Assembly: GCA_015064485.1 (NCBI GenBank)
Contig: SVSD01000001.1
Coordinates: 88,989 to 152,988, forward strand
From: Oscillospiraceae bacterium
GTDB lineage: Bacteria > Bacillota > Clostridia > Oscillospirales > CAG-382
Direction of reading: 5' to 3'
Length of the DNA stretch: 64,000 bases
The translations under genes and the position numbers were made by a program. Position 1 is the first letter of the stretch. Every line of letters starts with the position of its first letter. Of the stretch, positions 6,749 through 47,343 are shown piece by piece. Below the pieces are notes generated by a model. That model had not been told where the DNA came from. It was given only the letters and a program-made list of their open reading frames with translations, and did no database searches.

Positions 6749-7918
6749 ATGGTAAGCTTGCTTATTATAATATATATTGTTTTTATTTCTTTGGGTCTTC
6801 CTGATTCTCTTTTTGGAGTTGCATGGCCGGTCGTTCACAAAGAATTTTGTATCCCCGAAAGTTTTGCATCCGTATACAGTATAATAATCGGTATTTCTAC
6901 AGGCGGTGTAAGCTTTTTTGCAGGAAAACTTATAAGAAAATTCGGAACCGGCAAAGTAACTTTTTTCTCCACACTTCTTACAGTTATCGCTCTTGCCGGC
7001 ATCAGTTTTTCTCCAAACATTGTTGTGATGATGATTTTTTCTGTAATATTGGGTTATGGTGCAGGCGCAATCGATACCGGGCTTAATAATTTCGTTTCTC
7101 TTCATTATAAAGCAAAACATATGAACTGGTTTCATTGTTTTTGGGGACTTGGAGTGACAATAAGCCCGATGATAATGTCAAAGTTTCTCGGAGGAGAAAC
7201 TTTGTGGAGAGACGGGTACAGAGTTATTGCGATAATACAGCTTATAATTGCAGTAATTGTTTTGTTGACCCTCAAAAAATGGAATATAGCCGCTGAAAAC
7301 AGATCGGTATCACAAACACCTGAAAACAATTTGCCCGAAAAGAAATTAGTTGATTTACTAAGAATGAAAGGTGTCAAAACAAGCATTATTTCGCTCGGAC
7401 TTTACTGCGGCGGCGAATTTGTACTCGGCACATGGGGCGCAACTTTTGCCGTTAATACATTTTCCGTATCCCCGGAAGAAGCGGCAAAATGGGTTTCTCT
7501 TTATTATGGCGGAATTATGCTTGGCAGAATTATTTCAGGATTTTTGTCAGAAAAGCTATCCGACAATATGCTCATAAAATGCGGTGCTGCTGTTGCGGCT
7601 GCGGGCATAATGTTTTTCCTTTTGCCGATAGGAAAATTTGCACTTATAGGGCTTGTTTTGATAGGTATAGGTTACGGTCCTATATTCCCAAGCGTACTTC
7701 ACAGCATCCCCGAAAGATTTGGAACGGACTATTCCGCGGATATTACCGGTCATCATATGGGCGGAGCATATGCTATAGGTTTTGCCGTTCAGCTTATATA
7801 TGGATATTTAGCTTCCTCAACGACATTTGCTGTAACTCCGTTTATCCTTCTTGCACTGGCTCTTGGAGTAGTCATCACAACTGTTTATACATTAAGAGTG
7901 CTTAAAAACAACAGTTAA
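6749..7918 (+). CDS. MFS-type transporter
   Basis: Polytopic hydrophobic profile, ~12 segments. ATG 6749 preceded by AAAGGAG. The longer ORF start 6653 would run through the tRNA terminator. Confidence 0.72.
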   Translation: MVSLLIIIYIVFISLGLPDSLFGVAWPVVHKEFCIPESFASVYSIIIGISTGGVSFFAGKLIRKFGTGKVTFFSTLLTVIALAGISFSPNIVVMMIFSVILGYGAGAIDTGLNNFVSLHYKAKHMNWFHCFWGLGVTISPMIMSKFLGGETLWRDGYRVIAIIQLIIAVIVLLTLKKWNIAAENRSVSQTPENNLPEKKLVDLLRMKGVKTSIISLGLYCGGEFVLGTWGATFAVNTFSVSPEEAAKWVSLYYGGIMLGRIISGFLSEKLSDNMLIKCGAAVAAAGIMFFLLPIGKFALIGLVLIGIGYGPIFPSVLHSIPERFGTDYSADITGHHMGGAYAIGFAVQLIYGYLASSTTFAVTPFILLALALGVVITTVYTLRVLKNNS

Positions 7919-27003: not shown

Positions 27004-27040
27004 AAAAACAGACCAAAAGCAGTTGCTTTGGTCTGTTTTA
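27004..27040 (+). terminator. Terminator of the U32 peptidase gene
   Basis: aaacagaccaaaagc / gctttggtctgttt stem plus T-run. Confidence 0.75.
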
Positions 27041-27122
27041 CTATGATATGGTTGGAGCGTACTTTTCGGTTTTTATAATACCATTCTTTCGGCGGCGAAA
27101 GCCTTCTCAGGCATCACATCCT

Positions 27123-27197
27123 TTGCCTTTAGCATACGAATAACAAAAAGGAGCACCTTTCGGTACTCCTTTTTGTTATGGCGCGCTGCAAGGGACT
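27123..27197 (-). repeat. Distal copy of 75-bp direct repeat: tRNA-Arg(ACG) last 19 nt + its terminator + 18 nt
   Basis: Identical base-for-base to 27323..27397 by eye. Offset exactly 200 bp. Confidence 0.9.
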
Positions 27198-27322
27198 AGT
27201 CTTCGCCTTCGGCTCATCCTCCCTGCTTGTAAATGCTTCGCATTTCCTTCGCACCGCTCGCTACAAAACAGCCGTTTAGGCTGTTTTGCTTTACGCTCTC
27301 GCCCTCTCAGTGTTCGAGTCCC
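27198..27322 (-). repeat. 125-bp insert between the two tRNA-Arg 3'-end copies (repeat family B)
   Basis: Read in tRNA sense it starts gggactcgaacactgagagggc, which is the reverse complement of the host T arm. It contains the hairpin aaaacagcc-taaac-ggctgtttt. Homologous to 47132..47245. Confidence 0.8.
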
Positions 27323-27397
27323 TTGCCTTTAGCATACGAATAACAAAAAGGAGCACCTTTCGGTACTCCTTTTTGTTATGGCGCGCTGCAAGGGACT
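27323..27397 (-). repeat. Proximal copy of the 75-bp direct repeat (includes the functional tRNA 3' end and terminator 27341..27378)
   Basis: See 27123..27197. Minus-strand terminator ggagtacc-GAAA-ggtgctcc plus T-run. Confidence 0.9.
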
Positions 27398-27455
27398 CGA
27401 ACCCCTGACCTTTTGGTTCGTAGCCAAACACTCTATCCAGCTGAGCTAGCAGCGC
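27379..27455 (-). tRNA. tRNA-Arg (anticodon ACG), CCA encoded
   Basis: Minus-strand read gcgctgctagctcagctggatagagtgtttggctACGaaccaaaaggtcaggggttcgagtcccttgcagcgcgcca. 77 nt. Confidence 0.9.
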
Positions 27456-43661: not shown

Positions 43662-44540
43662 ATGAGAAAAGTTTCTTTTTTGATAACAAATGAATATGAC
43701 GGGATGAAGGTCGGCGATATATTAAAGCGAATGAACATTTCCTCAAGGCTTCTTCCCGAACTTAAGCGCACAGGCGGAATACTTTTAAACGGCAATATCG
43801 TAACCGTCAGAGAAAAGATAAAAGACGGCGATACCGTATCTGTCGTTCTTTATGAGGAAAGCTCCTCCGAAAATGTTATACCGACAAATATATCTCTTGA
43901 TATCATCTACGAGGATGAGGACATTCTTGCGGTCTGCAAGCCGAAGGATATGCCGGTCCATCCCAGCGCCTATAATTACGACAACACCCTCGGCAACGCC
44001 GTTATGTATTACTATCGTAATCAGAAATTCGTTTTCCGCCCGATAACCCGTCTTGACAGGGATACGACAGGTATTGTCATCATTGCAAAAAACAAGCTTT
44101 CCGCCGCCATCCTTTCGGATGAAATAAAAAACGGCGATATTAAAAAAACATATCTTGCATATCTTTCAAAAACTCCGAAAGACGATGTCGGCAAGATCGA
44201 AGCTCCGATTTTGCGAGAGACGGAAAGTGTTATAAAGCGCAAAGTGGATAAAGACGGCAAATACGCCCTTACCGAATATGAAATAATAAAAAAGCTTGAC
44301 GATGGCAGATGTATCGCAAAAGTTTCCCCCATAACAGGAAGAACCCATCAGATAAGAGTACATATGGCACATATAGGTTGTCCTCTGACATACGACTACC
44401 TTTACGGCACAGAAATCGAAGGAGAAACTTTATATTTACACTGTATGTCTTTGGAATTTACCCATCCTATAACAAGAGAAAAACTTATTTTGTCCTGCCC
44501 TCCGCCGGAAGACGGAGAGCTTTCACAAAAGCTTTCTTGA
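43662..44540 (+). CDS. RluA-family pseudouridine synthase with N-terminal S4-like domain
   Basis: Catalytic block ITRLDRDTTGIVIIAK and ..GRTHQIRVHMAHIG. Confidence 0.82.
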   Translation: MRKVSFLITNEYDGMKVGDILKRMNISSRLLPELKRTGGILLNGNIVTVREKIKDGDTVSVVLYEESSSENVIPTNISLDIIYEDEDILAVCKPKDMPVHPSAYNYDNTLGNAVMYYYRNQKFVFRPITRLDRDTTGIVIIAKNKLSAAILSDEIKNGDIKKTYLAYLSKTPKDDVGKIEAPILRETESVIKRKVDKDGKYALTEYEIIKKLDDGRCIAKVSPITGRTHQIRVHMAHIGCPLTYDYLYGTEIEGETLYLHCMSLEFTHPITREKLILSCPPPEDGELSQKLS

Positions 44541-45104
44541 ACTGAGTGTTTTTATGACAAAAAATGCGCCGACGGCTGTAAATACAGTTTCGGGAAGCAT
44601 ATATCCGCCGTTATAGAAAAGCGAATATAAATACGGGTTTGCACCGAACTGTTCAATAAAGCTTTCGGGGATCGAGTTTGCCCAGATTGTAACACCCGAA
44701 AGATAATGGCACAAAAATCTCAATGCGCAGACTCCGACCACCCCTAAAACCGAGGAAAGAGCACCTTTGTCCTTCAAAAAGCCAACAAGTCCGAGCACCG
44801 TAAATGCTAAAATGTAGTCAAGGATATAACAAACGATAAGGACAGTAGGCGTAAGTCCCCATCCGACGGCGCCCGACATAAGCGCCTGAGTTATCGAATA
44901 TACAAATGCAGCTCCAAGCCCCCACAACGGGCCGTGACGAAGAGCTGCAACGCACACGGGTAACATACTCAAAAGCGTAACAGCACCGCCAAAAGGCATC
45001 TCCCACACTTTTATAAAGCTTAATACAAATGATAATGCCACCATTATGGCACATTCCGAAAGAGCTCGCAGACGGGCTTTTTCTTTTTTTACCTGAGTTT
45101 TCAT
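44523..45104 (-). CDS. thiT: Thiamine transporter ThiT (ECF S component)
   Basis: ILDYILAFTVLG, RFLCHYLSGVTIWA and YSLFYNGGYMLP match blocks I recall from B. subtilis ThiT. ATG 45104 chosen because the longer ORF would include the riboswitch terminator. Confidence 0.8.
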   Translation of the reverse strand: MKTQVKKEKARLRALSECAIMVALSFVLSFIKVWEMPFGGAVTLLSMLPVCVAALRHGPLWGLGAAFVYSITQALMSGAVGWGLTPTVLIVCYILDYILAFTVLGLVGFLKDKGALSSVLGVVGVCALRFLCHYLSGVTIWANSIPESFIEQFGANPYLYSLFYNGGYMLPETVFTAVGAFFVIKTLSSRKLL

Positions 45105-45162
45105 TTTTATGATGATTCCTTTCGTTTTTTTGCAAACGCAACCTGCGGAAATTATTCTCCGG

Positions 45163-45326
45163 AAAAACAAAAACCGCCCCGAATATATCGGTGCGGTAAA
45201 TCAACATAAAAACTTTTATGAAATATCTTCCTACGCCGGTATTATCCGAACAGGTTAAAAGGGTTCGGGAAAATCCCATCTCAGCCGTATGCGGATATGG
45301 CCATATCCGTAAACAGCACCCCTGAT
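45163..45326 (-). promoter_or_regulatory. TPP (THI-box) riboswitch with terminator expression platform
   Basis: Minus-strand read caggggtgc..ggctgagatgggattttcccgaacccttttaacctgttcggataataccggcgtaggaa. Terminator accgcaccga-tatat-tcggggcggt plus tttttgttttt at 45163..45197. Confidence 0.85.
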
Positions 45327-45356
45327 ATATTCGATTGGTGCGAATGCATTGAAGAA

Positions 45357-47011: not shown

Positions 47012-47087
47012 CTGGGTGTGGCTCAGGTGGTAGAGCGCTACCTTGGGGTGGTAGAGGCCGTGGGTTCAAGTCCCGCCACTCAGACCA
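47012..47087 (+). tRNA. tRNA-Pro (anticodon GGG), CCA encoded
   Basis: ctgggtgtggctcaggtggtagagcgctaccttGGGgtggtagaggccgtgggttcaagtcccgccactcagacca. C1-G72 as in bacterial tRNA-Pro. 76 nt. Confidence 0.88.
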
Positions 47088-47127
47088 AAAAATACCGATA
47101 CCTTTTTGGTGTCGGTGTTTTTTATTT
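47088..47127 (+). terminator. tRNA-Pro terminator (first)
   Basis: 11-bp stem ataccgatacc / ggtgtcggtgt (two G-U pairs) followed by tttttt. Confidence 0.8.
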
Positions 47128-47131
47128 TGTA

Positions 47132-47245
47132 GGGACTTGAACCCTAAGAGGGCTTTTTGCGTAATGAAAACAGCCTAAATGGCTGTTTTTAGCAAAAAGG
47201 TGCGAGGCCTTTAGGCTGAGCAGTGCAGATCGCATTGCGATATGC
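47132..47245 (+). repeat. 114-bp insert between the two tRNA-Pro 3'-end copies (repeat family B)
   Basis: Starts gggacttgaaccc, the reverse complement of the host T arm gggttcaagtccc. Contains aaaacagcc-taaat-ggctgtttt. Homologous to the reverse complement of 27198..27322. Confidence 0.8.
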
Positions 47246-47269
47246 GTCCCGCCACTCAGACCAAAAAAA
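47246..47269 (+). repeat. Second copy of the tRNA-Pro 3' end (gtcccgccactcagaccaaaaaa)
   Basis: Identical 23 nt to 47070..47092. Offset 176 bp. Confidence 0.85.
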
Positions 47270-47305
47270 TCTCTGTACCGTATGGTGCGGAGATTTTTTT
47301 ATTTT
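47263..47305 (+). terminator. Second terminator after the duplicated tRNA-Pro 3' end
   Basis: 11-bp stem atctctgtacc / ggtgcggagat plus ttttttt. Same architecture as 47088..47127 but a different stem sequence. Confidence 0.75.
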
Positions 47306-47343
47306 GAAGGGACTTGAAGCCTTTCACAATTATTGAGAAAATC

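Follow-up and report, generated by a model that had tools for sequence, protein, structure and literature searches.

The T loop and T stem of tRNA genes are the classic site for elements moved by tyrosine integrases. Cis-mobilizable elements (CIMEs) lack an integrase, lie between att sites and are set in motion by a related ICE once accretion has taken place, and those described so far are kilobase-sized deletion derivatives of particular ICE. CIMEs are named in two reviews (PMC5704250, PMC7563491), and the tycheposons of Prochlorococcus are tRNA-integrating islands whose serial integration leaves arrays of partial tRNAs (10.1101/2020.12.28.424599).

The window (the whole 64-kb stretch of DNA analysed here, from an Oscillospiraceae bacterium) contains a tRNA-Arg and a tRNA-Pro gene, each followed by a repeating unit formed, in tRNA sense, by a tRNA tail, a terminator, a spacer, an inverted T arm and a body. 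As in tRNA-integrating islands and prophages such as tycheposons, the junction lies in the 3' part of the tRNA, a tail borne by the element supplies the tRNA end and leaves the gene intact, and direct repeats of the tail flank the insertion. Likewise the newest element is next to the tRNA, the older ones are outward and decaying, and integrase islands occupy the same junction in relatives. Unlike these islands, which are kilobases long and carry an integrase, the unit is gene-less, of ~180-200 bp, and presents a conserved four-hairpin body with a covarying helix; no integrase of its own is found in its 177-200 bp. The inverted T arm is always present behind the terminator in the units, whereas it is absent in the ~300 nt behind the terminator of one full island, inspected at both ends.

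Like CIMEs, the units are non-autonomous, flanked by att sites, devoid of recombination and transfer genes and would depend on a recombinase in trans, and in other subfamilies than those of the window some stand beside integrase islands that may be their autonomous partners; they are however about ten times smaller and form a sequence family found across many tRNA species and genomes. With integron attC cassettes they share arrays added at one fixed site, a site that would be set by the fold, the first bases of the following unit completing it, but integron integrase, attI, Pc and R-box consensus are all absent and the 'cargo' is a tRNA tail with a terminator. Single-strand recombination of the units is a conjecture. 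MITEs, REP/REPIN and Rickettsia palindromic elements are also of ~100-200 bp, hairpin-rich, non-coding and multi-copy, and RPE-like repeats of MAGs labelled as Rickettsiales share the P1-P2 module with the units. In contrast to these elements, the direct repeats of the units are long, variable and made of tRNA sequence instead of being short and fixed, their terminal inverted repeats are made of target sequence and their tie to the T loop of tRNA (or tmRNA) genes is strict; no cognate transposase was found.

A full-text literature search yielded no description of the layout and, with neither Rfam nor phage and plasmid records giving a match, the statement of an earlier note that no described family has it stands. 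Apparently the family is widespread and undescribed. The best explanation, given about an even chance of being right, is that the units are miniature, gene-less and integrase-less integrative elements, essentially attachment sites only, which enter the T-loop/T-stem region of tRNA genes and restore the tRNA. The earlier note had also named, as one of two possibilities beside a tRNA-linked small RNA, a non-autonomous mobile element consisting of the insert of 114-125 nt alone; the first part agrees with this explanation, and the second was corrected to a unit of ~177-200 nt to which the tRNA 3' end, the terminator and the spacer belong too.

Anatomy of the Arg and Pro loci

The components of both loci are listed in Table 1. 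Behind each insert the tRNA 3' end recurs together with a terminator, a point omitted in the framing of the earlier note.

Table 1. Components of the two loci in window coordinates, with the basis of each assignment.
Feature	Position	Strand	Basis
tRNA-Arg(ACG), intact, CCA encoded	27379..27455	-	ARAGORN; Rfam tRNA 62.5 bits
tRNA-Arg T-loop/T-stem/acceptor segment GTTCGAGTCCCTTGC, left arm of 15-nt inverted repeat	27388..27402	-	inverted-repeat search
Arg inverted repeat, other arm	27312..27326		100% complementary
Arg X1, direct-repeat copy 1, 75 nt	27323..27397	-	repeat search, alignment
Arg X1: tRNA ~58-76	27379..27397		
Arg X1: terminator-like hairpin and T run	27345..27374		
Arg X1: spacer	27323..27344		
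Arg insert (body), 125 nt	27198..27322	-	CM R1 101 bits
Arg insert: inverted T arm	27312..27322		
Arg insert: CACTGAGAGGG	27302..27312		
Arg insert: P1, imperfect, tandem G-A mismatches	27295..27301 / 27255..27261		
Arg P2 hairpin AAAACAGCC-TAAAC-GGCTGTTTT	27265..27287	-	inverted-repeat search
Arg insert: GGTGCGAAGG	27246..27255		
Arg insert: P3 hairpin	27231..27245		
Arg insert: P4 hairpin	27205..27213		
Arg X2, direct-repeat copy 2	27123..27197	-	75/75 identical to X1
Arg X2: displaced tRNA 3' fragment AGTCCCTTGCAGCGCGCCA	27179..27197		
Arg X2: terminator	27145..27174		
Arg X2: spacer	27123..27144		
Decayed start of older unit (aggatgtgatgcctgagaaggctttcgccg)	27093..27122	-	direct repeat 97 nt, 92%
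tRNA-Pro(GGG), intact, CCA encoded	47012..47087	+	ARAGORN; Rfam tRNA
Pro T arm, left arm of 13-nt inverted repeat (GGGTTCAAGTCCC)	47062..47074		100% complementary
Pro X1	47070..47131	+	repeat search, alignment
Pro X1: tRNA ~59-76	47070..47087		
Pro X1: terminator 1	47087..47123		
Pro X1: spacer	47124..47131		
Pro insert (body), 114 nt	47132..47245	+	CM R1 111 bits
Pro insert: inverted T arm	47132..47144		
Pro insert: small hairpin CCCTAAGAGGG	47142..47152		
Pro insert: P1 CTTTTTGC/GCAAAAAG	47153..47160 / 47192..47199		
Pro insert: P2	47167..47189		
Pro insert: GGTGCGAGG	47199..47207		
Pro insert: P3	47206..47217		
Pro insert: GAGCAG	47218..47223		
Pro insert: P4	47225..47245		
Pro X2	47246..47308	+	repeat search, alignment
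Pro X2: displaced tRNA 3' fragment GTCCCGCCACTCAGACCA	47246..47263		
Pro X2: terminator 2	47263..47300		
Pro X2: spacer			
Remnant inverted T arm GGGACTTGAAGCC of older unit	47309..47321	+	12/13 match; no body behind

Compared in tRNA sense, the two inserts are homologous, with a local alignment score of 64 against 16.0 +/- 2.5 in dinucleotide shuffles (n=2000; z = 19.5); z is still 13.7 without the leading 13 nt. The alignment spans the first ~78 nt and 62 of its 80 columns are identical (77.5%), as anticipated by the hand count of about three quarters in the earlier note, which had asked for shuffled controls. The palindromes that it had seen diverging after the shared part are aaatgcgaagcattt at the Arg P3 hairpin and atcgcattgcgat within the Pro P4 segment. 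A 23-nt hairpin (AAAACAGCCTAAAYGGCTGTTTT) and a 22-nt head (GGGACTYGAACMCTRAGAGGGC) are each present in exactly two copies in the 64-kb window, with 0 expected. Past the inverted T arm the Arg and Pro copies are 64% identical and neither is the closest relative of the other, so there is no sign of a recent jump inside this genome.

The direct repeat begins at tRNA position ~58 in Arg, where it is 75 nt long and 100% identical, and at position ~59 in Pro, where it comprises 23 nt (47070-92 and 47246-68) with a different terminator behind the second copy. The stems of Pro terminators 1 and 2 differ in sequence by mutually compensated changes and their flanks are similar; T run, spacer and inverted T arm after the terminators agree at 26 of 28 positions. 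Since these compensated differences stand behind identical tails, the proximal tail and terminator arrived with the insert from another lineage, which fits an element bringing its own tRNA end and not local duplication followed by drift.

A close relative (L093, a single-unit locus; neighbouring protein 98% identical) was informative on turnover at the Arg locus. Promoter, tRNA and X1 are 97% identical and the distal copy 98%, whereas the body is 80% identical and the spacer ~77% (17/22, hand count); the oldest remnant (27093-27122), by hand count nearer to the body of the Arg copy L009 than to the Arg body of the window, is absent from this relative. Compared with its flanks, the body is replaced or diverges much more rapidly between close relatives. 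This behaviour bears on a distinctly improbable alternative, namely that the units are not mobile as such and represent leftover ends of large islands or prophages, local tandem duplications (slippage, unequal crossing-over) or both. Partial-tRNA arrays and degenerate remnants are indeed common at island-bearing tRNAs (10.1101/2020.12.28.424599), the 75/75 Arg repeats fit a recent local duplication and homologous recombination can alter array length; however, neither the rapid change of the body nor the Pro terminators, homologous but compensated and hence not copies of each other, agree with it, and independent deletions would not leave the same body of ~115-125 nt, with the same hairpin order, at ten tRNAs in different genomes.

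Members in other genomes and host matching

The same layout was identified at 8 further independent tRNA loci (Arg, Trp, Leu, Glu, Pro, Tyr) of uncultured gut Clostridia. The 10 independent loci lie behind tRNAs Arg-ACG, Arg-CCT, Pro-GGG, Pro-CGG, Trp, Leu, Glu and Tyr and, together with the homology described above, bear out the single element family proposed in the earlier note. A direct repeat of the tRNA tail also flanks the insert in L086, L038, L004, L031, L040 and L093, and among loci its length varies from 19 to 97 nt (e.g. 23, 58, 75 and 83 nt); a target duplication by staggered cut was rejected, the lengths being too variable. Tandem arrays comprise five units behind one tRNA-Arg (contig CAKQUX010000007) and two behind the tRNA-Tyr of L040, and the distal copies are the more decayed. 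The structure of the window is identical in three independent metagenome contigs and a variant is present in a close relative, therefore it is not an assembly artefact; in all four the segment between the inverted repeats has the same orientation. Metagenome samples containing this strain include JGI 3300018475 and 3300018495.

Closely related bodies sit behind different tRNAs, with the inverted T arm changed to match: the L009 Arg copy is 80% identical to the Pro copy of the window and only 70% to its Arg copy. The repeat in which each insert opens with an inverted copy of its own host T arm, as first noticed, is exact over 15 nt in Arg and 13 nt in Pro. In a set of 47 tRNAs from the window and the fetched loci, the 10 independent unit-bearing tRNAs presented exact inverted matches of 11-15 nt to their own 3' 30 nt, located 36-101 nt downstream; the longest in the remaining tRNAs, without a unit, was 9 nt, and upstream controls reached at most 8 nt. 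The leading nucleotides, which according to the earlier note had to track the host, do so at all 10 loci, including those with unusual T arms (cacgatttgaac in L036, agatggattcgaa in L040, and L088 with an A mirroring a G-U wobble). Since the mobile unit would bring along the tRNA 3' end, with its junction to the tRNA lying within the T loop/T stem, the sequence that the inverted T arm matches is the tRNA tail of the element itself.

The inverted copy covers tRNA positions ~51/53 to 63/67, ending short of the acceptor end and CCA. Retroelement primer-binding sites are complementary to the 3'-terminal ~18 nt of the tRNA including CCA, and a site of retroviral type was discarded because the complementarity ends before CCA. 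Apparent full-length inverted tRNA tails in L050 and L056 were fragments of tRNAs from oppositely oriented units. In every unit the inverted T arm forms with the next tRNA fragment a closing stem of 4-10 bp made of target sequence, reduced to 4-5 bp in some (window Pro, L086). On our own reading no consensus is common to the final bases of the bodies, the place where a core-type half-site is expected.

Tyrosine integrases were identified at the same junctions in relatives. An island with two of them lies behind the body in L036, the junction being at AATCGTGT (tRNA positions ~58-65), and a 7-kb restriction-modification island with one lies between units of the tRNA-Leu array. Such islands abut or interrupt the unit arrays in L036 and contig CAKQUX010000007, which belong to other subfamilies than those of the window. 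Beside both window loci there are housekeeping genes and no integrase gene, and a tblastn search of the 64-kb window with one island integrase (479 aa, L036) gave no match. The tRNA-Leu array had hinted that the body might be a full island's integrase-proximal arm, a proposal that was withdrawn: homologues of that island's integrase, 89-96% identical, sit in other contexts, and the conserved end of the island stops before the body. A viral-contig search with the same integrase gave one distant match only.

Neither an empty site nor an excised circle was observed. At the orthologous loci, located through neighbouring proteins, the relatives found carry a unit (98% identity) or lack the tRNA genes at that place (82-88%). 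An origin from phages or plasmids was rejected: six unit types, the Pro insert among them, had no BLAST match in 50,697 phage and 72,556 plasmid records, and pattern scans of IMG/VR returned unrelated terminators only.

Folding of the body and the RNA reading

The body is formed by four hairpins, in the same order among loci. In the P1 helix 6 of 8 pairs are changed on both sides, with a covariation score of 0.273 against 0.085 in shuffles (0/500), in an alignment of only six sequences that was fitted to the structure. The two standard pairs of P1 that are not Watson-Crick are both G-U on the sense strand, with no A-C; in the Arg copy of the window and its orthologue the helix is broken by tandem G-A. 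The tRNA-sense strand folds better than the antisense in six of six members, and the Pro unit is predicted to adopt a fold with a closing stem GGGAC/GUCCC, four hairpins and a 3' tail of 13 nt (-55.7 kcal/mol, z = -4.7, MFE frequency 0.33). The Arg P2 hairpin has terminator shape on both strands because an A run precedes it and a T run follows. The module P1-GTAA-P2-TAGC is also present in repeats of Rickettsiales-labelled MAGs, at gene 3' ends and without tRNA-tail repeats; these hits were picked via the same 21-mer used for the scan.

Rfam at the gathering threshold, applied to the window and 18 related loci, identified only tRNA, tmRNA and a TPP riboswitch, and at E<10 nothing credible besides tRNA appeared in either insert region. 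A hammerhead-like core (CUGAGAG...CGAAGG) was dismissed by own inspection, its conserved positions being misfits, and a hidden tRNA or tRNA pseudogene on the opposite strand was called neither by ARAGORN nor by the Rfam tRNA model. The unit presents no ORF of note and no coding capacity.

The two-sided changes and G-U pairs of P1, the better folding of the sense strand and the Pro fold are what a structured non-coding RNA would display, and an unlikely reading is that the body is primarily such an RNA, carried or created behind tRNA genes, the tRNA-tail repeats being parts of the RNA gene and not scars. Transcription reading through the tRNA terminator, or starting at a promoter that escaped recognition, would produce it; the second terminator would give it a tail resembling that of a tRNA (...NCCA), and its 5' end might base-pair either with this tail or with the T arm. 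However, a consensus scan of both units, spacer included, found no promoter-like site, which discards a promoter of its own in the spacer; a terminator-like hairpin with a T run separates tRNA and body, and P2 has the shape of a terminator in the middle of the latter. The disruption of P1 in the Arg copy and its orthologue, the lack of a match in Rfam and the small, structure-fitted alignment also weigh against the RNA, which leaves the foreign terminators, the distally decaying arrays and the integrase islands at the same junction unexplained.

Proposed mode of movement and significance

As a miniature integrative element, the unit would comprise ~177-200 bp: tRNA positions ~59 to CCA, an intrinsic terminator, a short spacer, inverted tRNA positions ~53-67 and a four-hairpin body of ~100 nt. 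It would join the chromosome inside the T loop/T stem, where its own tRNA tail and terminator would complete the gene while the old tail is displaced downstream and older units decay distally. Insertion, amplification and loss would be carried out, probably through a circular intermediate, by a site-specific recombinase that an island or prophage using the same tRNA site provides in trans, and homologous recombination between the repeated tails would alter array length. The inverted T arm may serve a recombinase as an accessory site, or may be the 5' half of a stem that closes the body against the next GTCCC... fragment. Unit anatomy, direct repeats, family, host tracking, arrays, turnover and the integrase-island neighbourhood in relatives were observed directly. 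Integration is favoured by the intact tRNA and by the direct repeat of its 3' part, which begins in the T loop on either side of the insert, and the arrays with more decayed distal copies fit serial integration at one site. The layout shared by ten loci, the integrase islands at the same junction, the turnover in the close relative, the related bodies at different tRNAs and the lack of coding capacity also speak for this explanation.

Some observations do not favour the miniature integrative element, among them the lack of an integrase gene beside the window loci, of an observed empty site or circle and of a consensus at the body ends. A plain integrase model needs neither the inverted T arm nor a freely covarying helix, and the free covariation of P1 in sequence points instead to a folded single strand. 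Circles of DNA as small as ~180-200 bp are stiff, the 75/75 Arg repeat followed by an abrupt drop to 14/22 suits templated duplication or homologous exchange as well, and in L088, which may be a true Trp/Pro hybrid or a chimera, the unit has a tRNA-Trp upstream and the tail of a tRNA-Pro downstream.

The folded form is central to two further readings. It is rather unlikely that the units are cassettes of an unrecognised recombination system, widespread in gut Clostridia, for which tRNA T loops are the docking place and where the ~200-nt unit works single-stranded and folded, either as attC-like DNA or as an RNA guiding or templating the event. There the inverted T arm would give target recognition or site reconstruction, and its base-pairing would explain how related bodies are retargeted between tRNAs. 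Quite improbable is the specific version in which the cassettes are recombined as folded single strands, in analogy to the CTX phage attachment site or integron attC sites. The inverted T arm would then pair with the GTCCC... fragment that borders the body on its far side and rebuild a duplex tRNA site on one strand, while the T-loop region would act as attI and arrays would grow at the tRNA-proximal end. The conservation of structure and not sequence in P1, the closing stem present in every unit, whose 3' strand is exactly the inferred crossover region (~59-65), and the array geometry tRNA(1-58)-[tail-terminator-hairpin]n with the newest unit proximal all resemble such cassettes. However, neither an IntI-like nor any other candidate enzyme was identified, no integrase being found in the window, and the closing stem has just 4-5 bp in window Pro and L086. 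The inverted T arm also spans positions 53-57, for which only the complete tRNA upstream, and not the distal fragment, offers a partner; its match in L088 is to the Trp upstream rather than to the distal Pro fragment. The attC R-box consensus is GTTRRRY, and the T loop of the units (GTTCGAG or GTTCAAG) has a C at the fourth position and does not fit it.

A palindrome of MITE or REP/RPE type, moved by a DDE or HUH transposase that recognises P2 and prefers tRNA T arms, is very improbable, as is an invertible switch using the T arm and its inverted copy. The terminal inverted repeats of 5-10 bp around the body, the 13-15-bp inverted repeat flanking tRNA tail and terminator and the module at gene 3' ends in the Rickettsiales-labelled MAGs would suit them, although the latter hits were selected with the scan's own 21-mer. 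The direct repeats of 19-97 nt are variable, with no short fixed target duplication, and no related IS or transposase was seen; as to the switch, an essential tRNA would be destroyed if the arms recombined by inversion, and the second tRNA tail is left unexplained.

If the units are miniature integrative elements, elements of the integrase type would have a miniature gene-less counterpart, as transposons have in MITEs. These would multiply at tRNA genes, carry terminators, build arrays and offer extra docking sites for larger islands, in hosts that are abundant but uncultured gut bacteria. They would also confound callers of island and prophage boundaries that rely on partial-tRNA repeats, and would add dispersed repeats able to drive rearrangements. 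Two features, the strict agreement between inverted T arm and host tRNA and a helix whose pairing persists despite complete change of sequence, hint at recognition of a single-stranded folded form. In that case the choice of target would be readable from ~15 nt of the element, and the family would represent a compact natural system in which retargeting is directly testable.

Anatomy of the two tRNA loci

The window contains five tRNA genes, of which tRNA-Arg(ACG) and tRNA-Pro(GGG) share an unusual downstream anatomy; nothing comparable was identified behind the remaining three. In tRNA sense both loci start with the gene, its CCA encoded, followed by a hairpin of terminator shape with its T run and by 8-22 nt of spacer. 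Next come the insert, a second tRNA copy running from T loop to CCA, a further terminator and the decayed start of one more insert. The direct repeat of the Arg locus comprises 75 nt with 100% identity (27323-27397 and 27123-27197), falling to 14/22 precisely at the insert start. This locus is 100% identical across three independent metagenome contigs, which rules out an assembly artefact. At the Pro locus the repeated tRNA tail is identical in 23 of 23 positions (47070-92 and 47246-68), the terminator stems differ (ACCGATACC/GGTGTCGGT vs TCTCTGTACC/GGTGCGGAGA), and past them the T run, the spacer and the first 13 nt of the insert match at 26/28. The earlier note described the inserts correctly and missed the duplicated tRNA tail behind each of them, so the start and end of the element have to be reinterpreted: the unit is formed by tRNA tail, terminator, spacer, inverted T arm and body.

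The proposed homology of the two inserts was confirmed by a local alignment score of 64 against 16.0 +/- 2.5 in 2000 dinucleotide shuffles (z = 19.5, or 13.7 once the first 13 nt are removed). Identity across the first ~78 nt is 77.5%, close to the three quarters first estimated; further on the sequences diverge, as had been seen, and the layout stays alike. The leading bases are indeed the exact inverted T arm of the host (15 nt in Arg, 13 nt in Pro). That this end tracks its host also held among 47 tRNAs searched for an exact inverted match to their own last 30 nt: ten independent unit-bearing tRNAs match at 11-15 nt, located 36-101 nt downstream, every other tRNA at no more than 9 nt and upstream controls at no more than 8 nt. 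Atypical T arms are followed as well, GCACGTTCAAATCGTGT of a tRNA-Pro-CGG locus (L036) by CACGATTTGAAC and that of a tRNA-Tyr locus (L040) by AAGATGGATTCGAA. In the tRNA-Trp locus L088 the partner of a G-U wobble is reproduced as A, indicating a faithful DNA reverse complement and not an independently selected hairpin. The inverted copy spans tRNA positions ~53 to 63-67 in all cases (T loop and 3' T-stem strand) and stops short of the acceptor end.

A TPP riboswitch (77 bits; 45211-45333, minus strand) was identified upstream of the ORF at 44523-45170 (minus strand), whose ortholog in L098/L099 bears a Thia_YuaJ (thiamine transporter) domain. It is an ordinary riboswitch with no relation to the inserts.

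Features of the window loci, family members and related repeats
Feature	Location	Strand	Remarks
tRNA-Arg(ACG)	27455..27379	-	
tRNA-Pro(GGG)	47012..47087	+	
Arg insert	27322..27198	-	125 nt
Pro insert	47132..47245	+	114 nt
Arg decayed-insert remnant	27093-27122		
Pro decayed-insert remnant	47309-47321		
Unit, tRNA-Arg-ACG	L009		tRNA sequence same as the window's
Units, tRNA-Arg-ACG	L038 with L033		5 tandem units, ~194 nt each
Unit, tRNA-Leu	L004		
Unit, tRNA-Glu	L031		
Unit, tRNA-Pro-CGG	L036		
Units, tRNA-Tyr	L040/L051		2 units, second with a different hairpin of the same shape
Unit, tRNA-Arg-CCT	L086		metagenome scan with body-head pattern
Unit, tRNA-Trp	L088		metagenome scan with body-head pattern
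Unit, tRNA-Arg	L093		close relative's orthologous locus, found via neighbouring peptidase
Repeats in Rickettsiales-labelled MAGs	L016:4296-4397, L029:1168-1214, L034:6200-6308, L043:391-510, L070:7676-7719, L071:7109-7143, L055, L072		
Family B	L066:7350-8000, L010:5100-5571, L024:1-420, L050:1-300, L056:2500-3200		L066 units after tmRNA 6962-7322

Family members and fold of the body

The first family scan, with the central hairpin and one genome per species, returned many ordinary terminators. Among its matches were also clear relatives located behind tRNA genes in uncultured gut Clostridia, namely L009, L038 with L033, L004, L031, L036 and L040/L051. No account of the layout was found in Rfam, in phage or plasmid collections or by full-text literature search. 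L088 (848-1110) comprises an intact tRNA-Trp, a unit with a Trp-type inverted T arm and a tRNA-Pro 3' fragment (GTCCCGCCACTCAGACCA) identical to the window's, on a contig of 0.7x coverage; this hybrid may come from units at two loci having undergone homologous recombination, or from a chimeric assembly.

The window subfamily comprises six members (window Arg, window Pro, L009, L086, L088 and L093), which align full length with 95-114 bits under a covariance model built from the same six, so the scores are circular for membership and useful for alignment. The body begins with the inverted T arm, followed by CTRAGAGGGC, able to form a small hairpin (CCCU-NAG-AGGG), and by helix P1 enclosing GTAAAG. 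Then come hairpin P2 (AAAACAGCC-loop-GGCTGTTTT), TA, GGTGYGARG, hairpin P3, GAGCARG, hairpin P4 and the junction. P3 and P4 retain their hairpin shape with different sequences.

The sequences of P1 are unrelated among members (CTTTTTGC/GCAAAAAG, GAAAAGC/GCTTTTT, TTACGCC/GGCGTAA and GTTGCGC/GCGAAAC), both sides being changed in 6 of 8 pairs. In these six sequences, with the alignment fitted to the model, pairing is 92% (39-57% in slid controls) and covariation 0.273 vs 0.085 +/- 0.030 in shuffles, none of 500 reaching it. Four members are fully Watson-Crick. Exceptions are the window Arg copy (27255-27301) and its orthologue L093 (3824-3945), with tandem G-A mismatches in mid-helix: the outer C-G/G-C pairs are kept around three consecutive purine-purine oppositions (A-G, G-A, A-G), either a tolerated tandem G-A motif or the sign of a decaying copy. 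Since P1 covaries freely, some single-stranded fold, DNA or RNA, is argued to be under selection, and mainly for this reason two other readings are kept, the body as a structured non-coding RNA and the units as attC-like cassettes folding as single strands. The tRNA-sense strand folds more stably than the opposite one in 6/6 members. Folding of the Pro unit together with the next tRNA fragment (-55.7 kcal/mol, z = -4.7) predicts a GGGAC/GUCCC stem that closes the structure, four hairpins and an unpaired 13-nt tail with terminal CCA; the Arg unit gives z = -3.2. Every unit allows a stem of 4-10 bp to be drawn from the inverted T arm to the tRNA fragment that follows. No promoter-like site was identified within the units.

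Similar modules were observed elsewhere. Just past the decayed third unit of the Arg locus, the convergently oriented U32 peptidase gene has a terminator (27005-27039; AAAACAGACCAAA...TTTGGTCTGTTTT) that resembles P2; this ~140-nt stretch is absent from L093. Repeats in Rickettsiales-labelled freshwater MAGs contain the module P1 - GTAA.. - AAAACAGCC-TAAAY-GGCTGTTTT - TTAGC - P1', followed by GGGCGAGAGC..GCTCCCGCCC and a further hairpin, with up to 45 bits (E 4e-8) under CM R1, a covariance model of units. Their P1 covaries too (gcttaaagc/gctttaagc, gtaaaagc/gcttttac, gaaacc/ggtttc). Because the 21-mer itself served to select these loci, the flanks alone are independent evidence. Like Rickettsia palindromic elements, the repeats lie at the 3' ends of protein genes or overlap them; in L029 and L034 they supply the last codons and the stop. 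A mirror-image case is L043 (200-750), where a body-like repeat upstream of tRNA-Arg(ACG) is flanked by a 27-nt direct repeat (8 nt of leader and tRNA positions 1-19), the 5' and not the 3' part of the tRNA being duplicated.

In a second family (B), units are arranged in tandem after a tmRNA gene and after tRNA tails. Its order is terminator, a body of ~150 nt ending in ...GCGATACCCC..AAAGCAAG.., the same P2 hairpin, TTACTTGCTCAC and an acceptor-end fragment (...GGTTCCACCA), with the junction near the acceptor end instead of the T loop. Units of two families stand head to head around a tRNA-Glu fragment in L056.

Exchange, turnover and integrase islands

The units are built like an element that has entered the 3' part of a tRNA gene and brought its own tRNA end. 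At the Pro locus, local duplication and drift cannot account for identical tails followed by homologous, compensated terminators; the pattern fits a proximal tail, terminator and body arriving from another lineage. In arrays the best-preserved units adjoin the tRNA and the decayed ones are distal, both window remnants included, which matches serial integration at one site.

Turnover was compared between the window and L093, where a neighbouring protein is 98% identical. Identity is 97% for promoter, tRNA and proximal tail-terminator copy (X1) and 98% for the distal copy, against 80% for the body and ~77% for the spacer (hand count); the oldest remnant of the window Arg locus is absent in L093. 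The units turn over faster than their surroundings. Subfamily junctions with the distal fragment lie at G59/T60, and L086 retains G where its host tRNA has A, placing the exchange region at ~59-65. The L009 body, from an Arg locus, shares 80% identity with window Pro and 70% with window Arg, so bodies are not strictly clustered by tRNA, which indicates retargeting between tRNAs with the inverted T arm changing along. The two window bodies are 64% identical past the inverted T arm; they are old residents and not a recent intragenomic jump. No unit-less allele was found, relatives at 82-88% protein identity being without these tRNA loci.

Integrase islands were identified at two loci. The L036 island encodes two tyrosine integrases (Pfam Phage_integrase with SAM-like domain) and starts exactly at the exchange position of the distal fragment (AATCGTGT|). 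In contig CAKQUX010000007 (L033, L038 and L004) a 7-kb island with a DNA methylase, a helicase-type restriction subunit, TIR-like genes and a 304-aa tyrosine integrase lies between units of a tRNA-Leu array. The truncated body beside the integrase gene in this array was first read as the integrase-proximal arm of the island attachment site. This reading was dropped: integrase homologues at 89-96% identity are very common, they adjoin a terminase gene or cassettes of other kinds, their flanks differ, and the island end that is conserved (...GATACAAGTCGGCTCG) does not reach the body. A truncated unit lying against the island is the better view of this body. One full island with both ends inspected has no inverted T arm in ~300 nt behind its terminator, making this arm a property of the mini-units. 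No integrase gene was identified near either window locus, nor a homologue of the L036 island integrase (479 aa, the sole query) in the 64-kb window.

The 304-aa integrase (L033+L038+L004, L104-L111) travels with DNA methylase/helicase-type restriction cassettes and has thousands of homologues at ≥74% identity in gut metagenomes, in clusters of 400-1100 members. It occurs within the tRNA-Leu unit array and beside a phage terminase gene, and upstream of it AACTCGCA-N7-8-TGCGAC motifs recur and a long palindrome (GGCGTGGCTTGTCTT...AAGACAAGCCACGCC) is present.

Known systems and proposed mechanism

Among the closest systems are tRNA-integrating islands with partial-tRNA arrays and integrase-less CIMEs, whose defining att-site features the unit shares; however, islands encode an integrase and the unit does not, and it is ten-fold smaller than described CIMEs. 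It resembles integron cassettes by geometry and fold but departs from integrons in the R box and IntI. By size it is like small palindromic repeats, and unlike a MITE it has no short target duplication of fixed length.

A unit of ~177-200 bp is joined to the chromosome within tRNA positions ~59-65, single or arrayed, and has been exchanged between lineages. It would circularise, the body end joining GTCCC..., and a site-specific recombinase encoded elsewhere in the cell, on an island or prophage of matching tRNA specificity, would carry out its integration and excision. Arrays would grow and shrink through homologous recombination between tails, and allelic replacement would spread the filled locus within a species. 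Two roles are favoured for the inverted T arm: it may be an extra core-like recombinase-binding site, comparable to the accessory integrase sites of attI, or the 5' strand of a stem rebuilding the target duplex in a single-stranded unit.

The textbook mechanism accounts neither for the inverted T arm that matches its host nor for the covarying helix, and there is a minority chance of something more unusual than a variant of tRNA-site integrative elements. The observation is solid and the family widespread; judging from the sequences, the unit may be mobile, moved by a putative recombinase acting in trans.
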